This document shows, in pieces, positions 28,698-34,649 of a stretch of DNA of 59,919 nt; within the stretch, counting starts at the first letter, position 1, and every line of letters starts with the position of its first letter. The notes under the pieces were generated by a model. The model saw nothing but the letters and a program-made list of their open reading frames with translations, did no database searches and had not been told where the DNA came from. Source of the DNA: a virus; the UHGV virus genome UHGV-0342645. One strand, given 5' to 3'. A program made the translations under genes and the position numbers.

Positions 28698-29405
28698 ATG
28701 AATATTAATCAACAAGCTCCCGAGTCTCGTTCTAAAGAAAACGATATGTATTTAGACGTGCATTCGGTATTCTCTACCATTCAGGGTGAAGGTCCGTTCT
28801 GCGGCCAGCCTGCTGTATTTGTGCGCCTTGCTGGATGTAACCTGCAATGCCCAGGCTGCGACACGGATTATACTGTTGGTCGTTCTCTTTACCACATTGT
28901 TGATATCATGCGTTTAATCGAAAGCCGTAAGCTGGAATCAGGCAATAGCACCTCACTTGTGGTTATTACTGGGGGTGAACCGTTCCGTCAGCAAATTAAC
29001 CCGCTTATTGAACAACTGTTATCGCGGGGCTATTTGGTGCAAATCGAAACTAATGGGTCTATGCCTTTACCTAAGAACTTTTCCCAGTTGCCTGTGATTG
29101 TATGTAGCCCCAAGACCTCAAAGATTCATCCTTCTGTGCTTTACCGCGCTAATGCATTTAAATATGTACTTAAAGCGTGCTGTGTAAACGTGGAAGATGG
29201 TTTACCCCTTCAAGCATTAGATCATCAAGCTACGCCATTTATCGCTAGACCTCCGAAGGGGTTCAAGGGTAAGATATATTTACAGCCAATGGACGAGCAG
29301 GATGAAGACCTTAACCACAGTAACATCCAAGCGGTTGTCCAAAGCTGTATGAAACACGGATACACGTTGCAGCTTCAGGTTCACAAATATATCGGGGTGG
29401 AATAA
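28698..29405 (+). CDS. queE: 7-carboxy-7-deazaguanine synthase (radical SAM)
   Basis: IQGEGPF..G.P..F.RLAGCNLQCPGCDT matches the QueE cluster-binding CxxxCxxC variant and the SAM-binding start; alternative start at 28743 (MYLDVH). Confidence 0.8.
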   Translation: MNINQQAPESRSKENDMYLDVHSVFSTIQGEGPFCGQPAVFVRLAGCNLQCPGCDTDYTVGRSLYHIVDIMRLIESRKLESGNSTSLVVITGGEPFRQQINPLIEQLLSRGYLVQIETNGSMPLPKNFSQLPVIVCSPKTSKIHPSVLYRANAFKYVLKACCVNVEDGLPLQALDHQATPFIARPPKGFKGKIYLQPMDEQDEDLNHSNIQAVVQSCMKHGYTLQLQVHKYIGVE

Positions 29406-29659
29406 TGCGTGTGTTAAGTCGGGTTGTGCATACTAAAGATGTTAATTTTTATGGTGTCACTTTAACCGTTCCAAGTCGAGTTGATTATCTGGCAGCTGAC
29501 AAGGATGGAAAGGTTTGTGGGTATGAAGTAGCTCCTCCAGAACTCAGTCATCGATTTGATAGATGGCTGCCAGCAGATCCGGGAGCTTACGAGTACGATG
29601 AAATAGCTTATGTAGACCTTGAAGGCTTAGACTGGACTCAAACATTAAGGGAGGTTTAA
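29405..29659 (+). CDS. hypothetical protein, third member of the small paralog family (YLAADKDGKVCGYEVAP ... YVDLEGLDWTQTLREV)
   Basis: 84 aa; located inside the deazaguanine island; shares motifs with 8050..8352 and 8683..8964 on the other strand. Confidence 0.45.
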   Translation: MRVLSRVVHTKDVNFYGVTLTVPSRVDYLAADKDGKVCGYEVAPPELSHRFDRWLPADPGAYEYDEIAYVDLEGLDWTQTLREV

Positions 29660-30054: not shown

Positions 30055-30762
30055 ATGAATAAATTAGATAAACTGGTATTCCCTGTAAAAAATCATAACT
30101 CCGCCGTTGTAGTCCTGTCTGGCGGCCAGGACAGTGTGACCTGTTTAGGTCTTGCACTTAATAACTATGATAAGGTTTACGCTATTGGTTTTGCATACGG
30201 TCAACGTCATAACATTGAGCTGGCTTGTGCTAATCAAATTTGTAAAGAGCACGATGTCCCATTTGTTGTCTTTGAATTACCTGCTTTGAAACAGATTGGG
30301 AATAGCGCTTTAATCGGGGATGAAGGTGATGTTAACGAACATCACGAACAGCACAACAACCTTCCGGCAAGCTTTGTGCCAAACCGTAATGCTCTTTTCC
30401 TCACTACCGCGCACGCTTACGCACAGAAAGTTGGCGCTCGATATGTGGTTACGGGCGTTTGTGAAACAGACTATAGCGGTTATCCGGATTGCCGCCAGCA
30501 GTTTGTAAACTTGCTTGAAGCTACATTAAACGTTGGATATGAAACTGATATCCATTTTGTTACACCGCTTATGCGTTTAAATAAAGCGGAAACGTTTGAA
30601 CTGGCGGATAAGGTTGGTTTCTTAACCACAGTAATTGAACAGTCCCATACTTGCTATAACGGTGTCCGTCGCACTCTGCATGACTGGGGCTATGGTTGCG
30701 GTGAATGCCCTGCGTGCAAACTGCGTGCTAAAGGGTACAGCGAATTTATTAGCAAAGCTTAA
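30055..30762 (+). CDS. queC: 7-cyano-7-deazaguanine (preQ0) synthase
   Basis: PP-loop VVLSGGQDS near the N-terminus and C-terminal Zn-binding cysteines (CYNG...CGECPAC); 235 aa, canonical single-domain QueC with no glutamine-amidotransferase fusion. Confidence 0.85.
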   Translation: MNKLDKLVFPVKNHNSAVVVLSGGQDSVTCLGLALNNYDKVYAIGFAYGQRHNIELACANQICKEHDVPFVVFELPALKQIGNSALIGDEGDVNEHHEQHNNLPASFVPNRNALFLTTAHAYAQKVGARYVVTGVCETDYSGYPDCRQQFVNLLEATLNVGYETDIHFVTPLMRLNKAETFELADKVGFLTTVIEQSHTCYNGVRRTLHDWGYGCGECPACKLRAKGYSEFISKA

Positions 30763-30882
30763 TCTTACCGCGAAAACCGCACCGCTAGCGCATTGTTTAG
30801 GGTGCGGGAACCCAACTATACTACTAAAGCTTTTAAACCCAACAACCAGCGAATACCGCTGTTAAAACTGGAGAACAAAAGT

Positions 30883-31362
30883 ATGAAATTTATCGTCGCT
30901 TATTTGGCTGCAATTACATTCGTAAATCTGGGCTTTTCCTACCTCCCAATGCTTAACACGCCTCTTGGCGTAGTCCCCATGATGGCTTTCTTTGTAGGTA
31001 TTATCTTTGTGTTGCGTGACTACGCACAGCGTAACGCTGGCAAAGGCGTTATCCCTGCAATGATTGTGGGTTGCATCCTTAGCTGGGTATTTGGGGACCC
31101 TGCTGTTGTAGTTGCATCCGTTGCATCCTTTGCTCTTAGCGAGTTTGCGGACTATGCGGTATACACGATTACTAAGAAGCCGTTTCATCAACGTGTATTT
31201 ATCAGCTCTTTGGTAGCTGTACCAATTGACTCCATTGTGTTCTTAAGTATTATAGGTATTGTTAATCCGGGATCAATGGTAGCAATGAGCTTAAGTAAGT
31301 TCACAGCATCTGCCATCCTTTGGGTTGTTTACGAAGTTCATTCACGTACAGCGAGAGCGTAA
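30883..31362 (+). CDS. YhhQ/QueT (Vut/DUF165)-family membrane protein, putative 7-deazapurine (preQ0/preQ1) precursor transporter
   Basis: Start refined to MKFIVAYLAAI (RBS GGAGAACAAAAG). Multi-TM protein; the ASFALSEFADYAVY and LRDY motifs resemble DUF165/YhhQ conserved segments. Confidence 0.55.
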   Translation: MKFIVAYLAAITFVNLGFSYLPMLNTPLGVVPMMAFFVGIIFVLRDYAQRNAGKGVIPAMIVGCILSWVFGDPAVVVASVASFALSEFADYAVYTITKKPFHQRVFISSLVAVPIDSIVFLSIIGIVNPGSMVAMSLSKFTASAILWVVYEVHSRTARA

Positions 31363-31363
31363 A

Positions 31364-31954
31364 ATGAAAGATAATTTGAATAAAATTTGGCATCAACACG
31401 ACGGTAAAGGAATGCCTATTTTTCTTCGTAATGAGAAGTTTGAAGTTCGTTTGCGCAACGGCACACACGTTAAGAATCTATTACATGGATGGGATTGGGC
31501 TATGGAAGGGCGTTCAGCTATGGATGAGAATAGCCCTTATAAAGTTCAAGATATTATAGCCTGGCGATATATTGTTGCGGATGATTACGTCAAACAAGCC
31601 GGCGAAAACACTCGCTCCGGAGTGTGCCATCAATCTTCTTCTGGAATAAGCATAAGTAATACATTTAATGGTGCAGTTTTTACGAAATATGAACCATCTA
31701 AAATTCCCATGAATAAATATCAGAAAATTATTTATGGTAAAGATCAAAACGGCAATGTTGTAAAATGCATCGTGGACGTGTATGATGTCTTGGAAGCTTG
31801 GAAAACGACTAACCCAGCTTTACAACATTTGATTAAAAAGGCGTTGCAGCCTGGCGAACGCGGTCATAAAAGTCTGGTAGAAGACTTGAAAGATATTATT
31901 GCATCTGCACAGCGTGCGTTAGAAATTGAACAGTCTAAAGAGGTGTTAAAATGA
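31364..31954 (+). CDS. hypothetical protein embedded in the deazaguanine island
   Basis: About 196 aa from MKDNLNKIWHQ; no recognisable motif; flanked by the transporter and queD. Confidence 0.45.
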   Translation: MKDNLNKIWHQHDGKGMPIFLRNEKFEVRLRNGTHVKNLLHGWDWAMEGRSAMDENSPYKVQDIIAWRYIVADDYVKQAGENTRSGVCHQSSSGISISNTFNGAVFTKYEPSKIPMNKYQKIIYGKDQNGNVVKCIVDVYDVLEAWKTTNPALQHLIKKALQPGERGHKSLVEDLKDIIASAQRALEIEQSKEVLK

Positions 31955-32484
31955 GCTATACAGTAATTCGTTCACATGAAATTTGTGCTGGACATCGTGT
32001 TGTAGGACATGAAAGCAAGTGTCGTCATCTTCACGGTCACAACTATAAGTTTCACTTTAAGGTTGCACCGAAGCGCGTAGAAAGCGAAAACTACATCCCG
32101 GGCGCGAAAGGTTTCTCCGTTGAAGGTAAACTGGACGATGTCGGGCGCGTTATTGATTTTAGTGTGGTTAAGACTACGCTCTGTCAGTGGCTGGAAGACA
32201 ACTGGGATCACAAGTTCCTGCACTGGGAAAATGATCCTCTCATTAAAGGCCTCGATGCTCTTTTACGTCACGACGCTGCTATAGGGTATGACGTGGTAGA
32301 GCAAGAGGACGGATCCCATTTCTTTGACTCACTGGTAGCGCTACCGTTCAACCCAACTGCGGAGAACTTAGCTGCATATATGGTTAACGTAATTGGACCG
32401 CAACTACTTGACGGACATGGTGTTCAACTTGTAGAATGCACCATCGAAGAAACTTCGAAATGCCACGTAAATTATAGCCTGTAA
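31951..32484 (+). CDS. queD: 6-carboxy-5,6,7,8-tetrahydropterin synthase
   Basis: CxxxHGH zinc/active-site motif (CRHLHGHNY) and a second HH; 177 aa. Confidence 0.8.
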   Translation: MSYTVIRSHEICAGHRVVGHESKCRHLHGHNYKFHFKVAPKRVESENYIPGAKGFSVEGKLDDVGRVIDFSVVKTTLCQWLEDNWDHKFLHWENDPLIKGLDALLRHDAAIGYDVVEQEDGSHFFDSLVALPFNPTAENLAAYMVNVIGPQLLDGHGVQLVECTIEETSKCHVNYSL

Positions 32485-32519: not shown

Positions 32520-33101
32520 ATGCGTAAAGATACTGTAAAAATTGCTATTAGTTCATTACTTTTAAATATTGAAGGTTCAACAGAACTCCGTCCTGGGTTG
32601 GAAGAGACTCCTGAACGTGTCGCTAAAGCATACCAGACGTGGTTCGGCGGTTACGATGTAGATATCGCTGGATTGTTTAAAACCTTTGAGGATGGGGCTG
32701 AAAACACCAATGAAATGGTCATTGCCCGTGATATTCCTGTATACAGTCATTGTGAGCATCACATGGCTCCTATTATCGGTCATGCTGTTGTGGGTTATGT
32801 TCCCAATGGGAAGATCGTTGGGCTCAGTAAACTGTCTCGCGTAGTTGATGCTTTTAGCCGTCGCTTGCAAGTCCAAGAGCGTCTAACTAACCAGATTGCA
32901 GACGCTATCCAGGAGCATTTAAACCCGAAAGCTGTATGCGTTTATATTGACGCCAAACATATGTGCATGGAGTCGCGCGGTGTTAAGCAGGTATGCGGCA
33001 GCTCTACCATTACCAAAGCGTTCCGGGGCGCTACAGAACTGGAGCATGGTAGCGATATTGGTAAAGAATGGCGCCGGGAGTTCCTTGAAGCTTGTAAATA
33101 A
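32520..33101 (+). CDS. folE: GTP cyclohydrolase I
   Basis: SHCEHHM zinc-binding motif; 193 aa; first step of the preQ0 pathway. Confidence 0.85.
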   Translation: MRKDTVKIAISSLLLNIEGSTELRPGLEETPERVAKAYQTWFGGYDVDIAGLFKTFEDGAENTNEMVIARDIPVYSHCEHHMAPIIGHAVVGYVPNGKIVGLSKLSRVVDAFSRRLQVQERLTNQIADAIQEHLNPKAVCVYIDAKHMCMESRGVKQVCGSSTITKAFRGATELEHGSDIGKEWRREFLEACK

Positions 33102-33171: not shown

Positions 33172-33729
33172 ATGGAAATTATCACAAGAGCTGAAGCAAA
33201 AGAAAGAGGTTTGAAATATTATTTTACTGGTAAGCCTTGTGCGAAAGGTCATCTTTCTGAAAGAAAGACTGTAGATGGCTATTGCATTACTTGTGACAGA
33301 GAAGCACGAAAGAAAAGAATGCGTATTTACAATAAAACAGAAGCTGCAAGGAATGCTATTAAGAGATATCATAAGTCACAGAAAGGAAAAGAAGCCCTTC
33401 AACGTTCAAAAGCTGCTTATAATTCTACTGAGAAAGGTAAAGAACAAAATAAAGAAAGGCTGAAACGCTGGGCTAAGACAGATTACGGTAAAGCTAGATC
33501 AAGATTACATTCCCTTGAAGTGCATAAGAAAAGGTCTTTAAGAATCCCTGCGTGGTCTGAAAAAGAACAAATTGAATTGTTCTACGCTAACTGCCCGGAT
33601 GGGATGGAGGTTGATCATATTATACCTCTTTGCGGTAAAAGAGTTAGTGGACTTCACGTCCTTAGTAACCTACAATACTTATCTATTGAAGAAAACAGAT
33701 CTAAGCGTAATAAATTTGAGGTGGAATAA
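33172..33729 (+). CDS. HNH homing endonuclease
   Basis: C-terminal HNH motif EVDHIIPLCGK...NLQYLSIEENRSKRN; the N-terminus has CxxC...CxxC; inserted between folE and dpdA. Confidence 0.7.
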   Translation: MEIITRAEAKERGLKYYFTGKPCAKGHLSERKTVDGYCITCDREARKKRMRIYNKTEAARNAIKRYHKSQKGKEALQRSKAAYNSTEKGKEQNKERLKRWAKTDYGKARSRLHSLEVHKKRSLRIPAWSEKEQIELFYANCPDGMEVDHIIPLCGKRVSGLHVLSNLQYLSIEENRSKRNKFEVE

Positions 33730-34649
33730 TGCATCTGTTTGTTGCTGCGGTATATACCAACGGCTATAAAGCTGGTCAACAACGATATGAAAAGTTAAAC
33801 GATCGGGAAAAGGACATCGTTAATAGCCTACCAAATATTTTGGAATCATACCACTACGTTGGACGTCAGAAGTATGTTGATCAAATGCGTGCGGACGGGG
33901 CTAAAGTGTTTCTCGACTCCGGAGCATTCTCCGCGCACTCGTTAGGTGCTCACATTGATATTGTCGAATATTGCGAATACATCAAACGCAATAAAGATAT
34001 CCTGCGCGTAGAAGATGGTGCTGTAATGGCGTCAGTGCTTGATGGTATCGGTGATCCACTGCAAACCTACCGTAACCAGCTTGAAATGGAAGCACGCGGT
34101 GCTAAACCGTTACCTTGCTTTCACTTTGGGGAGGACTTCCGCTATCTCGAATATTACATGAAGAACTACGAATATATCACCATCGGGGGCATGGTAGGGC
34201 GTTCCACGGACACGCTTAAAACTTGGCTTGACCGCATGTGGGATAAATATATTTGCGATGGTAGCGGTCGCCCTAAGATTAAGCTTCATGCATTTGGTAT
34301 TACGTCCACTACCATTATGGAACGTTACCCGTGGTATAGCTGTGACTCATCCTCCTGGATTCAAGCGGCAGCGTTTGGAAGTGTGGTTACTCCTCCGTGG
34401 GGCCCGATGCGCGTATCTGACAAGTCACCGGACCGACACCATTTCGGTAAGCACGTTTCAACGCTAACTGAAATTGAACAAGACGCTGTCCTTAAATACC
34501 TTGAGCAAAACGGTTTCACTTACGAACGTTTATCAACAATCTATGAATCACGTGCTGCCTTCAACTTATGGGCGTATGGTGTAATTGCTGCAAACATTAA
34601 CGCTACCCATGACGGCACATTCCGTGATCGTGTAATGGAGTTGTTCTGA
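33729..34649 (+). CDS. dpdA: DpdA-like DNA 7-deazaguanine transglycosylase (TGT superfamily)
   Basis: 306 aa; LDSGAFS resembles the TGT LDSGGFQ substrate-binding motif. Co-located with queCDE/folE, as in phage deazaguanine DNA-modification clusters. Confidence 0.65.
   Translation: MHLFVAAVYTNGYKAGQQRYEKLNDREKDIVNSLPNILESYHYVGRQKYVDQMRADGAKVFLDSGAFSAHSLGAHIDIVEYCEYIKRNKDILRVEDGAVMASVLDGIGDPLQTYRNQLEMEARGAKPLPCFHFGEDFRYLEYYMKNYEYITIGGMVGRSTDTLKTWLDRMWDKYICDGSGRPKIKLHAFGITSTTIMERYPWYSCDSSSWIQAAAFGSVVTPPWGPMRVSDKSPDRHHFGKHVSTLTEIEQDAVLKYLEQNGFTYERLSTIYESRAAFNLWAYGVIAANINATHDGTFRDRVMELF

Follow-up and report, generated by a model that had tools for sequence, protein, structure and literature searches.

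Short Vut_1-type membrane proteins of about 155–165 aa form a clade that is tightly linked to DpdA, the transglycosylase that exchanges guanine in DNA for a 7-deazaguanine base, and this linkage is what our analysis adds to the published record. The member from which the work proceeds is a 159-aa protein encoded in UHGV virus genome UHGV-0342645 (the whole stretch of 59,919 nucleotides that was analyzed is called “the window” below). Judged by its sequence, the protein is a real but remote member of the Vut_1/COG1738 (YhhQ) superfamily and not an equivalog. We consider it probable, if far from assured, that it serves as a solitary importer of preQ0-type bases feeding DpdA; in this we infer what is transported, in which direction, and that the protein acts alone. 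For the window itself little is at stake, as the gene, its annotation and even its knockout have already been published. What value remains lies in the recognition of the short Vut_1 clade, coupled to DpdA and overlooked by the usual YhhQ searches and by curated thresholds, as a distinct subfamily of putative transporters.

The gene cluster and its published relatives

The cluster in which the gene lies (Table 1) is ~93% identical in DNA sequence to those of Escherichia phages Seurat, CAjan and slur01 (Seuratvirus, Queuovirinae), and the window is a Seuratvirus genome. The preliminary description had spoken of a full biosynthetic pathway, and the transporter gene does sit within a complete preQ0 and DpdA cluster (queE, queC, queD and folE, together with dpdA). 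The phage QueC carries no Gat domain, so that preQ0 is the predicted end product. The gene also lies between queC and queD, as had been described, although queD is not its immediate neighbor: an ORF of 196 codons intervenes, for which no match was found in Pfam or NCBIfam. To detect DpdA, PHROGs and an HMM built locally took the place of the Pfam TGT model, which overlooks phage DpdA proteins, including the one encoded in the window.

Table 1. Features of the preQ0 and DpdA cluster in the window, with the matches on which their assignments rest.
Feature	Positions	Strand	Product and evidence
queE	28698..29405	+	7-carboxy-7-deazaguanine synthase, radical SAM; NCBIfam QueE models E 1e-21 to 4e-28; phrog_2076 E 2e-68
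Three small ORFs	between queE and queC	+	
queC	30055..30762	+	7-cyano-7-deazaguanine (preQ0) synthase; Pfam QueC 251 bits; TIGR00364 242 bits, above cut-off
Non-coding leader	30763..30882	+	120 nt, from queC stop to transporter start
yhhQ-like transporter gene	30883..31362	+	159 aa; ATG 30883, TAA 31360-31362
ORF of unknown function	31364..31954	+	196 aa; phrog_23361 E 4e-101; kept in Seuratviruses; syntenic with CAjan AJT60525
queD	31951..32484	+	6-carboxytetrahydropterin synthase; Pfam PTPS 78 bits; phrog_2389 E 9e-56
folE	32520..33101	+	GTP cyclohydrolase I; Pfam GTP_cyclohydroI 210 bits; TIGR00063 189 bits
HNH-type ORF	between folE and dpdA	+	
dpdA	33729..34649	+	DNA guanine transglycosylase inserting preQ0 into DNA; phrog_887 E 1e-94; syntenic with CAjan AJT60520

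A GGAG ribosome-binding site stands 8 nt 5′ of the ATG of the transporter gene. The same frame is open upstream as far as TTG 30793, and a longer protein starting there was considered and rejected. CAjan and most relatives have an in-frame TAA at that place (G-to-T), and the homologues all begin at MKF in the alignment; on both counts ATG 30883 is the start. Compared with four relatives (CAjan and three from IMG/VR), the gene has 26–40 synonymous differences and only 1–4 non-synonymous ones, with dN/dS of 0.010–0.040, the mark of strong purifying selection.

The encoded protein matches those of Seurat, CSP1, WildeMaa and other phages at 100% identity and, at 98.7% identity, its CAjan orthologue (AJT60526.1, YP_009196835), which occupies the equivalent position directly downstream of queC and is annotated as “putative preQ0 transporter.” The two clusters differ in that CAjan has one more ORF between the transporter gene and queD, and the window an additional HNH ORF between folE and dpdA. 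Kot 2020 counted yhhQ as one of the six CAjan cluster genes that could be assigned (PMC7544227), Morozova 2021 described the EC151 orthologue and its Seuratvirus and Vibrio phage relatives (PMC8310023), and Olsen 2023 noted yhhQ immediately 3′ of queC in CAjan (PMC10484667). The combination of pathway and transporter had been singled out in the preliminary description as notable; with the gene annotated as a putative preQ0 transporter in CAjan and discussed in these three papers, it is not new, and the interpretation first offered is the published one.

The knockout speaks to a further suggestion, that the transporter would raise modification levels. CAjan from which yhhQ had been deleted by CRISPR-Cas9 kept the wild-type density of dPreQ0 and its restriction resistance in BHI medium (PMC7544227), and under laboratory conditions, therefore, no such effect was seen. 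Deletion of CAjan folE, queC or dpdA led to loss of modification density and of restriction resistance; dpdA is required for dPreQ0, and the residual dPreQ0 of the folE and queC mutants, which is 12-fold lower, was credited by Kot et al. to preQ0 from host metabolism (PMC7544227). The tabulated genome length of the yhhQ knockout drops from 59,670 to 59,120, a loss of 550 bp for a gene of 480 bp, and the deletion must consequently extend into adjoining sequence. The host, E. coli, carries a YhhQ of its own.

Family membership and predicted fold

The only Pfam match of the 159-aa protein is Vut_1 (PF02592, DUF165), at E 1.9e-5. Its 25.5 bits fall short of the gathering score of 27.2 bits, and the match is restricted to profile positions 58–140 of 152 (the C-terminal ~55%); the same profile matches E. 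coli YhhQ at positions 1–149 with 124.8 bits. The NCBIfam equivalog TIGR00697 (“queuosine precursor transporter”) gave 21.7 bits, its cut-off being 50.95, a value that none of the clade members scored against it attains (17.9–38.1 bits). NF008406/PRK11212, the model of the E. coli-type preQ0/preQ1 transporter with a cut-off of 252 bits, gave no match at E ≤ 0.01 (E. coli YhhQ itself reaches 391 bits). What had been called DUF165/YhhQ-like is thus upheld as to the superfamily and fails at the curated cut-offs of both Vut_1 and TIGR00697. The additional label “QueT-like” has to be given up, as the Pfam and NCBIfam models returned only Vut_1 and TIGR00697 and no match to QueT/QrtT. These ECF S-components, predicted for preQ1/queuosine precursors, have in common with the phage protein a fold class and a proposed role in the salvage of Q precursors. 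PHROGs assigns the protein to phrog_4899, of “unknown function,” and a direct similarity to E. coli YhhQ was rejected, the BLASTP comparison not being significant.

Membership is easier to recognize in the relatives. All 51 aligned clade relatives match Vut_1 (best E 4.4e-11; one member has a weak extra family match), with scores above the cut-off for the clade members P0056, P0094 and P0012 (30–34 bits) and for the nearest cellular relatives (35–42 bits). Comparison of the clade profile with E. coli YhhQ by hhalign gave E 4.6e-5 at a probability of 68.6%; a single YhhQ sequence was used, the top 120 matches of the YhhQ search being only homologues at least 87% identical. In this alignment, to be read with its probability of only 68.6%, the clade residues D46, R50, D90 and D116, which are invariant or nearly so, pair with D57, R61, D126 and D154 of YhhQ, charged residues within the membrane core. 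The two proteins are alike in these membrane-embedded Asp/Arg residues and in their genomic association with 7-deazaguanine genes, and differ in size, the phage protein being 62 residues shorter than the 221 aa of YhhQ. E. coli YhhQ is needed for preQ0/preQ1 salvage, a function defined by the return of Q-tRNA in E. coli ΔqueD ΔyhhQ supplied with nanomolar precursor, and subgroups of COG1738, which has no universally conserved residue, track the salvage of preQ0, preQ1 or queuine (PMC5372724).

The short form is a sizeable and stable subfamily. When 1.84 billion representative proteins were searched with a profile, 1,994 clusters were recovered at E ≤ 1e-3 and 129 at E ≤ 1e-30, the best matches being mostly 150–190 aa long; a length of ~155–165 aa is kept across ~130 clusters (50% identity, E ≤ 1e-30). 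Longer clade members have no informative additional domain in Pfam save for one RseA_N fusion. A 2019 census that used PSI-BLAST from E. coli YhhQ left the YhhQ column blank for CAjan, Seurat, Greed, slur01, VpKK5, RHEph06 and Vibrio phage 1.117.O (PMC6884629, Supplementary Data 1), and the pairing of DpdA with the transporter thus escaped that census.

The description of the protein as spanning the membrane several times is borne out by its strong hydrophobicity (GRAVY 1.03) and, as a prediction, by an AlphaFold2 model computed from the alignment of 51 sequences (mean pLDDT 82.5, pTM 0.74). The model places helices at residues 2–20, 33–70, 73–96, 101–124 and 129–158, with a short hairpin at 23–32. 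The helix at 33–70 is long and kinked around residues 50–54 (R50-K54), so that the five helices would make six membrane segments; clusters of lysine and arginine (50/54, 98/99/104 and 155/158) seem to fit a six-segment topology with both termini inside.

On this model, the protein appears to have the fold of an ECF-transporter S-component, and the closest solved folds found by structure comparison are all S-components of importers. A search by sequence for relatives with a solved structure found none. The resemblance to the solitary ECF-type S-components BtuM and BioY, and also to RibU, FolT and ThiT, comes from predicted structure: structural alignments give 7–18% identity, there is no detectable sequence similarity, and the substrates differ. 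Within the membrane helices, the polar or charged residues N15, R45, D46, Q49, E87, D90 and D116 are invariant. The predicted fold agrees with the assignment of COG1738 to the VUT family by TCDB, and also with the argument that YhhQ operates in E. coli K-12 in the absence of an ECF module (PMC5372724).

Linkage of the short form to DpdA

Viral loci were surveyed in IMG/VR by taking the best 80 of 182 matches and searching their flanks, which vary in length, with locally built HMMs on stop-to-stop ORFs. DpdA is present in 68 of these best 80 of 182. At 48 of the 80 (best of 182), it begins on the same strand at most 300 nt downstream, and the flanks hold no preQ0 genes; in another 20 of the same best 80 of 182, DpdA lies farther off and is accompanied by at least one preQ0 synthesis gene, all four (QueE, QueC, QueD and FolE) being found in 19 of those 20. 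Spot checks of the adjacent ORF identified phrog_887, or phrog_15826, the PHROG of the DpdA-like protein of Arthrobacter phage Aoka.

Collapsed at 90% identity, the 80 loci (best 80 of 182) form 55 clusters. DpdA is adjacent, with no preQ0 synthesis genes, in 28 of the 55 drawn from the best 80 of 182 matches; it is farther away and joined by preQ0 synthesis genes in 16, while four have preQ0 synthesis genes only and seven have neither (all counted on the same 55 clusters from the best 80 of 182). The flanks of these last seven are mostly short, with ~10 kb per side in two of them (L033 and L093). In the sampled viral loci, including those of phages without genes for preQ0 synthesis, the short Vut_1 clade is DpdA's most frequent partner, and we regard the linkage of the clade to DpdA as supporting a role in the supply of 7-deazaguanine.

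Named phages and elements display the same pairing. The homologues of Vibrio phages PS25B.1, BUCT006 and 1.173.O abut or overlap a gene annotated as “hypothetical” that encodes DpdA: the neighbor matches phrog_887 (DpdA) at E ~1e-60 in PS25B.1 and BUCT006, and that of 1.173.O is 79% identical to the BUCT006 DpdA. Queried by tblastn with the proteins of the window, these three genomes were found to lack FolE, QueD, QueE and QueC. In Arthrobacter phage Aoka, the transporter gene is followed by an ORF for a 109-aa T-fold (QueF-like) protein and then by the DpdA-like gene, and a Shewanella integrative element holds an integrase, a repressor, a DEAD helicase, a TGT-family gene and the transporter gene, the last two overlapping by 4 nt.

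In other phages the two genes lie apart. Aminobacter phage Erebus and Sulfitobacter phage M39 have DpdA and the full preQ0 pathway with the transporter gene elsewhere in the genome (in Erebus ~10 kb off, in the replication module). The 2019 census (PMC6884629) records DpdA and the full pathway for VpKK5 and Rhizobium phage RHEph06, and in VpKK5 and the related Rhizobium phage RHph_N17 the transporter gene stands amid replication genes, beside a DUF669 gene. The neighborhood of the nearest actinobacterial relative (P0108) contains no queuosine or dpd genes and is uninformative.

Bacterial dpd islands with an embedded yhhQ suggest that salvaged preQ0 enters DNA (PMC5699537). The viral loci resemble these islands in that a COG1738-type gene stands by a DpdA-type transglycosylase, the Shewanella element being one such case; they differ in that the phage clade is short and that the sampled viral loci usually have DpdA alone, without other dpd genes.

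Proposed function, alternatives and the upstream leader

The reading that we favor is of a compact six-helix inner-membrane protein, from a short and divergent branch of Vut_1/COG1738, that would bring a free base of the 7-deazaguanine type, most probably preQ0, into the cytoplasm of the infected cell from the outside; there, DpdA would exchange it for guanine in the phage DNA. The transporter would act alone, like other solitary ECF-type S-components: YhhQ has been argued to function without an ECF module, of which E. coli K-12 has none (PMC5372724), and it is from this lack of an energizing module that solitary action would follow. In Seuratviruses, import would serve as a back-up or supplement to the phage FolE-QueD-QueE-QueC pathway, and redundancy with that pathway and with the YhhQ of the host would explain why the CAjan knockout is silent in rich medium. 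In phages with only DpdA and the transporter, the latter would be the only supply function that the phage encodes.

Several observations weigh against an importer of preQ0-type bases. The phenotype of the CAjan deletion provides no tie between the protein and the modification, and the YhhQ already present in the host makes the benefit of a second importer less evident. COG1738 is heterogeneous in substrate (PMC5372724), membership by sequence is marginal, with only the C-terminal ~55% of Vut_1 matched, and seven of the 55 viral clusters (from the best 80 of 182 matches) have neither DpdA nor preQ0 genes.

We also put forward, tentatively and with less conviction than the import function itself, that the short Vut_1 clade may be a distinct, DpdA-dedicated subfamily of transporters. 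It would be the sole element-encoded supply of the base in elements that have DpdA and the transporter only, and hypermodification there would depend on environmental preQ0-type bases, for example those released by neighboring or lysed cells. Should preQ0 be the base that is imported, anti-restriction modification would rest, in those phages, on the uptake of a metabolite that the host or the surrounding community produces, and the clade would offer a compact solitary S-component for studies of 7-deazaguanine transport.

Among the other explanations, a different substrate ranks as the likeliest, followed by a role other than transport, then by export and finally by gene decay, the last two being poorly supported. 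It is possible, though on balance unlikely, that an importer of the Vut_1 fold feeds DpdA or a related step with a base other than preQ0, such as preQ1, CDG, queuine or another purine-like base. The division of COG1738 into subgroups that follow the salvage of preQ0, preQ1 or queuine (PMC5372724) would leave room for this, as would the distance of the phage clade from the E. coli-type model, the promiscuity of which DpdA enzymes are capable (PMC10516641) and the T-fold/QueF-like ORF that lies between transporter and DpdA in Aoka. Seuratviruses, however, contain dPreQ0, and the QueC that they encode is accompanied by neither QueF nor a Gat domain, which identifies preQ0 as the base used by their DpdA, and the aspartates common to YhhQ argue for a similar class of ligand.

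The silent deletion in CAjan, which left modification unaffected, would also fit a protein that keeps the S-component fold and has a membrane role other than transport, perhaps in superinfection exclusion, in interference with the host YhhQ or in anchoring the modification machinery; small membrane proteins are frequent in phages, and phrog_4899 is listed as of unknown function. We think this improbable, because the invariant polar and charged residues inside the membrane, partly common to YhhQ, form the pattern of a ligand site, and because the close pairing of the gene with DpdA, often with translational coupling and seen in phages and hosts that are unrelated, indicates the 7-deazaguanine pathway and not an exclusion specific to the host.

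Export of a toxic intermediate, which had been raised as a second option from the outset, or of the guanine released by DpdA, is very improbable. Nothing direct speaks for it beyond the position of the gene within a biosynthetic cluster; the closest solved folds are all S-components of importers, and the characterized family member imports. Moreover, the 28 of 55 clusters (from the best 80 of 182) that have DpdA and no biosynthetic genes would have no phage-made intermediate to export, and a lytic phage gains little by detoxifying a doomed cell. That the gene is a decaying, non-functional remnant of a captured host yhhQ is hardly credible, for although the protein is short (159 against 221 aa) and below the family cut-offs, and the CAjan deletion has no phenotype, a dN/dS of 0.01–0.04 effectively refutes decay, the length of ~155–165 aa is kept across ~130 clusters, the modeled six-helix fold appears complete and of typical S-component size, and there is no BLASTP-level similarity to the host gene.

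A last point concerns the leader between queC and the transporter gene. Bacterial yhhQ genes often stand behind preQ1 riboswitches, although this is not obligatory. The phage gene differs from them in this respect: an Rfam scan of positions 30600–31000 at E ≤ 10 returned only a chance snoRNA match and no preQ1 riboswitch, and such an element in the leader was rejected on this basis. The leader is predicted to fold with a minimum free energy of −27.7 kcal/mol (z −2.0), with a GC-rich hairpin at ~30777–30807 that has no U tract and a second, small one at ~30847–30861, and a predicted helix sequesters the ribosome-binding site.

The sequence of the leader is 95.8–100% identical in 34 Seuratvirus records, compared with 91.9–97.9% for the gene, and across relatives the figures are 98.1% and 92.6%. 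We considered whether it might be an exceptional conserved RNA element and rejected the idea, since the cluster has three further intergenic stretches that are equally conserved (98.6–100%) and RNAalifold found informative covariation in just 2 of 25 pairs. As a weaker addition to the proposal of a dedicated subfamily, this conserved and structured Seuratvirus leader could be a ligand-sensing regulator of a new class. The GC-rich hairpin carries the annotation “terminator” in phage SA80RD, and in more distant relatives a plain terminator-like hairpin separates queC from the transporter gene; we regard the leader as an ordinary regulatory spacer, possibly a partial terminator that reduces expression of the membrane protein.

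Vibrio Phages, a Shewanella Element and Arthrobacter Phage Aoka

The gene adjoining the short Vut_1 (YhhQ-like) gene is annotated as "hypothetical protein" in the Vibrio phages PS25B.1, BUCT006, and 1.173.O, but in PS25B.1 and BUCT006 this neighbor is clearly a DpdA homologue, and its counterpart in 1.173.O is 79% identical to the BUCT006 DpdA (see table). Since DpdA adjoins Vut_1 and no genes for preQ0 synthesis were seen in the genomes of these three phages, they are unrecognized candidates for a 7-deazaguanine DNA modification that uses a host or imported base. The same pairing was found in a small integrative element of Shewanella sp., where the short Vut_1 gene shares 4 nt with a TGT-family (DpdA-like) gene; this element is a compact dpd-like module within a bacterial genome.

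In Arthrobacter phage Aoka, a 109-aa ORF lies between the Vut_1-like and DpdA-like genes and weakly matches a GTP cyclohydrolase PHROG over the T-fold portion of that family (possibly QueF-like), and a PAPS-reductase-like ORF is located two genes upstream; these two ORFs may be additional 7-deazaguanine tailoring genes.

Features of the modification cluster and of the compared loci (L-numbers denote loci, with coordinates in that locus; all others are in the window)
Feature	Location	Strand	Remarks
DpdA homologue, Vibrio phage PS25B.1	L007 36105-36872	-	phrog_887, E about 1e-60
DpdA homologue, Vibrio phage BUCT006	L008 14035-14841	-	phrog_887, E about 1e-60
DpdA-like gene, Vibrio phage 1.173.O	L010 9512-10318	-	79% identity to BUCT006 DpdA
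Integrative element, Shewanella sp. contig JBFRKG010000075	L013 1-6506		integrase, HTH repressor, DEAD/ResIII helicase, TGT-family (DpdA-like) gene, short Vut_1 gene
Aoka gp39	L005 6486-6815		
Aoka gp36	L005 4498-5532		
84-aa ORF	29405-29659		directly 3' of queE; phrog_1972 (unknown function)
Leader	30763-30882		non-coding, 5' of transporter gene
196-aa ORF	31364-31954		immediately 3' of transporter gene; phrog_23361 (unknown function)
HNH/endonuclease VII-like ORF, 185 aa	33172-33729		between folE and dpdA; phrog_1035, phrog_1081

Sequences Flanking the Transporter Gene

Across 34 Seuratvirus genomes, the leader is 95.8-100% identical and is more conserved than the synonymous sites of the transporter gene itself. 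It contains a GC hairpin that lacks a U tract, as well as a helix predicted to mask the ribosome-binding site, and it had no match in Rfam. Because conservation is just as high in other intergenic stretches of the cluster, the leader is probably ordinary regulatory sequence.

On the other side, only 1 nt separates the transporter stop codon from the 196-aa ORF, which is kept across Seuratviruses and whose C-terminal half matches several other PHROGs of unknown function; at this site CAjan has an extra 324-nt ORF that is absent from the window. The yhhQ deletion in CAjan shortened the genome from 59,670 to 59,120 bp (Kot, 2020; PMC7544227, Table 1), a loss of 550 bp, which exceeds the 480 bp of the gene, so some of a neighboring ORF or of the leader must be missing from the mutant as well.

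Indels Within the Modification Cluster

The HNH ORF looks like a homing-endonuclease insertion in the cluster. CAjan and two IMG/VR relatives either lack it or have a 207-nt ORF in its place. The 84-aa ORF, mostly missing from the aligned sequences of CAjan and two compared loci (L016 and L017), is a further indel.
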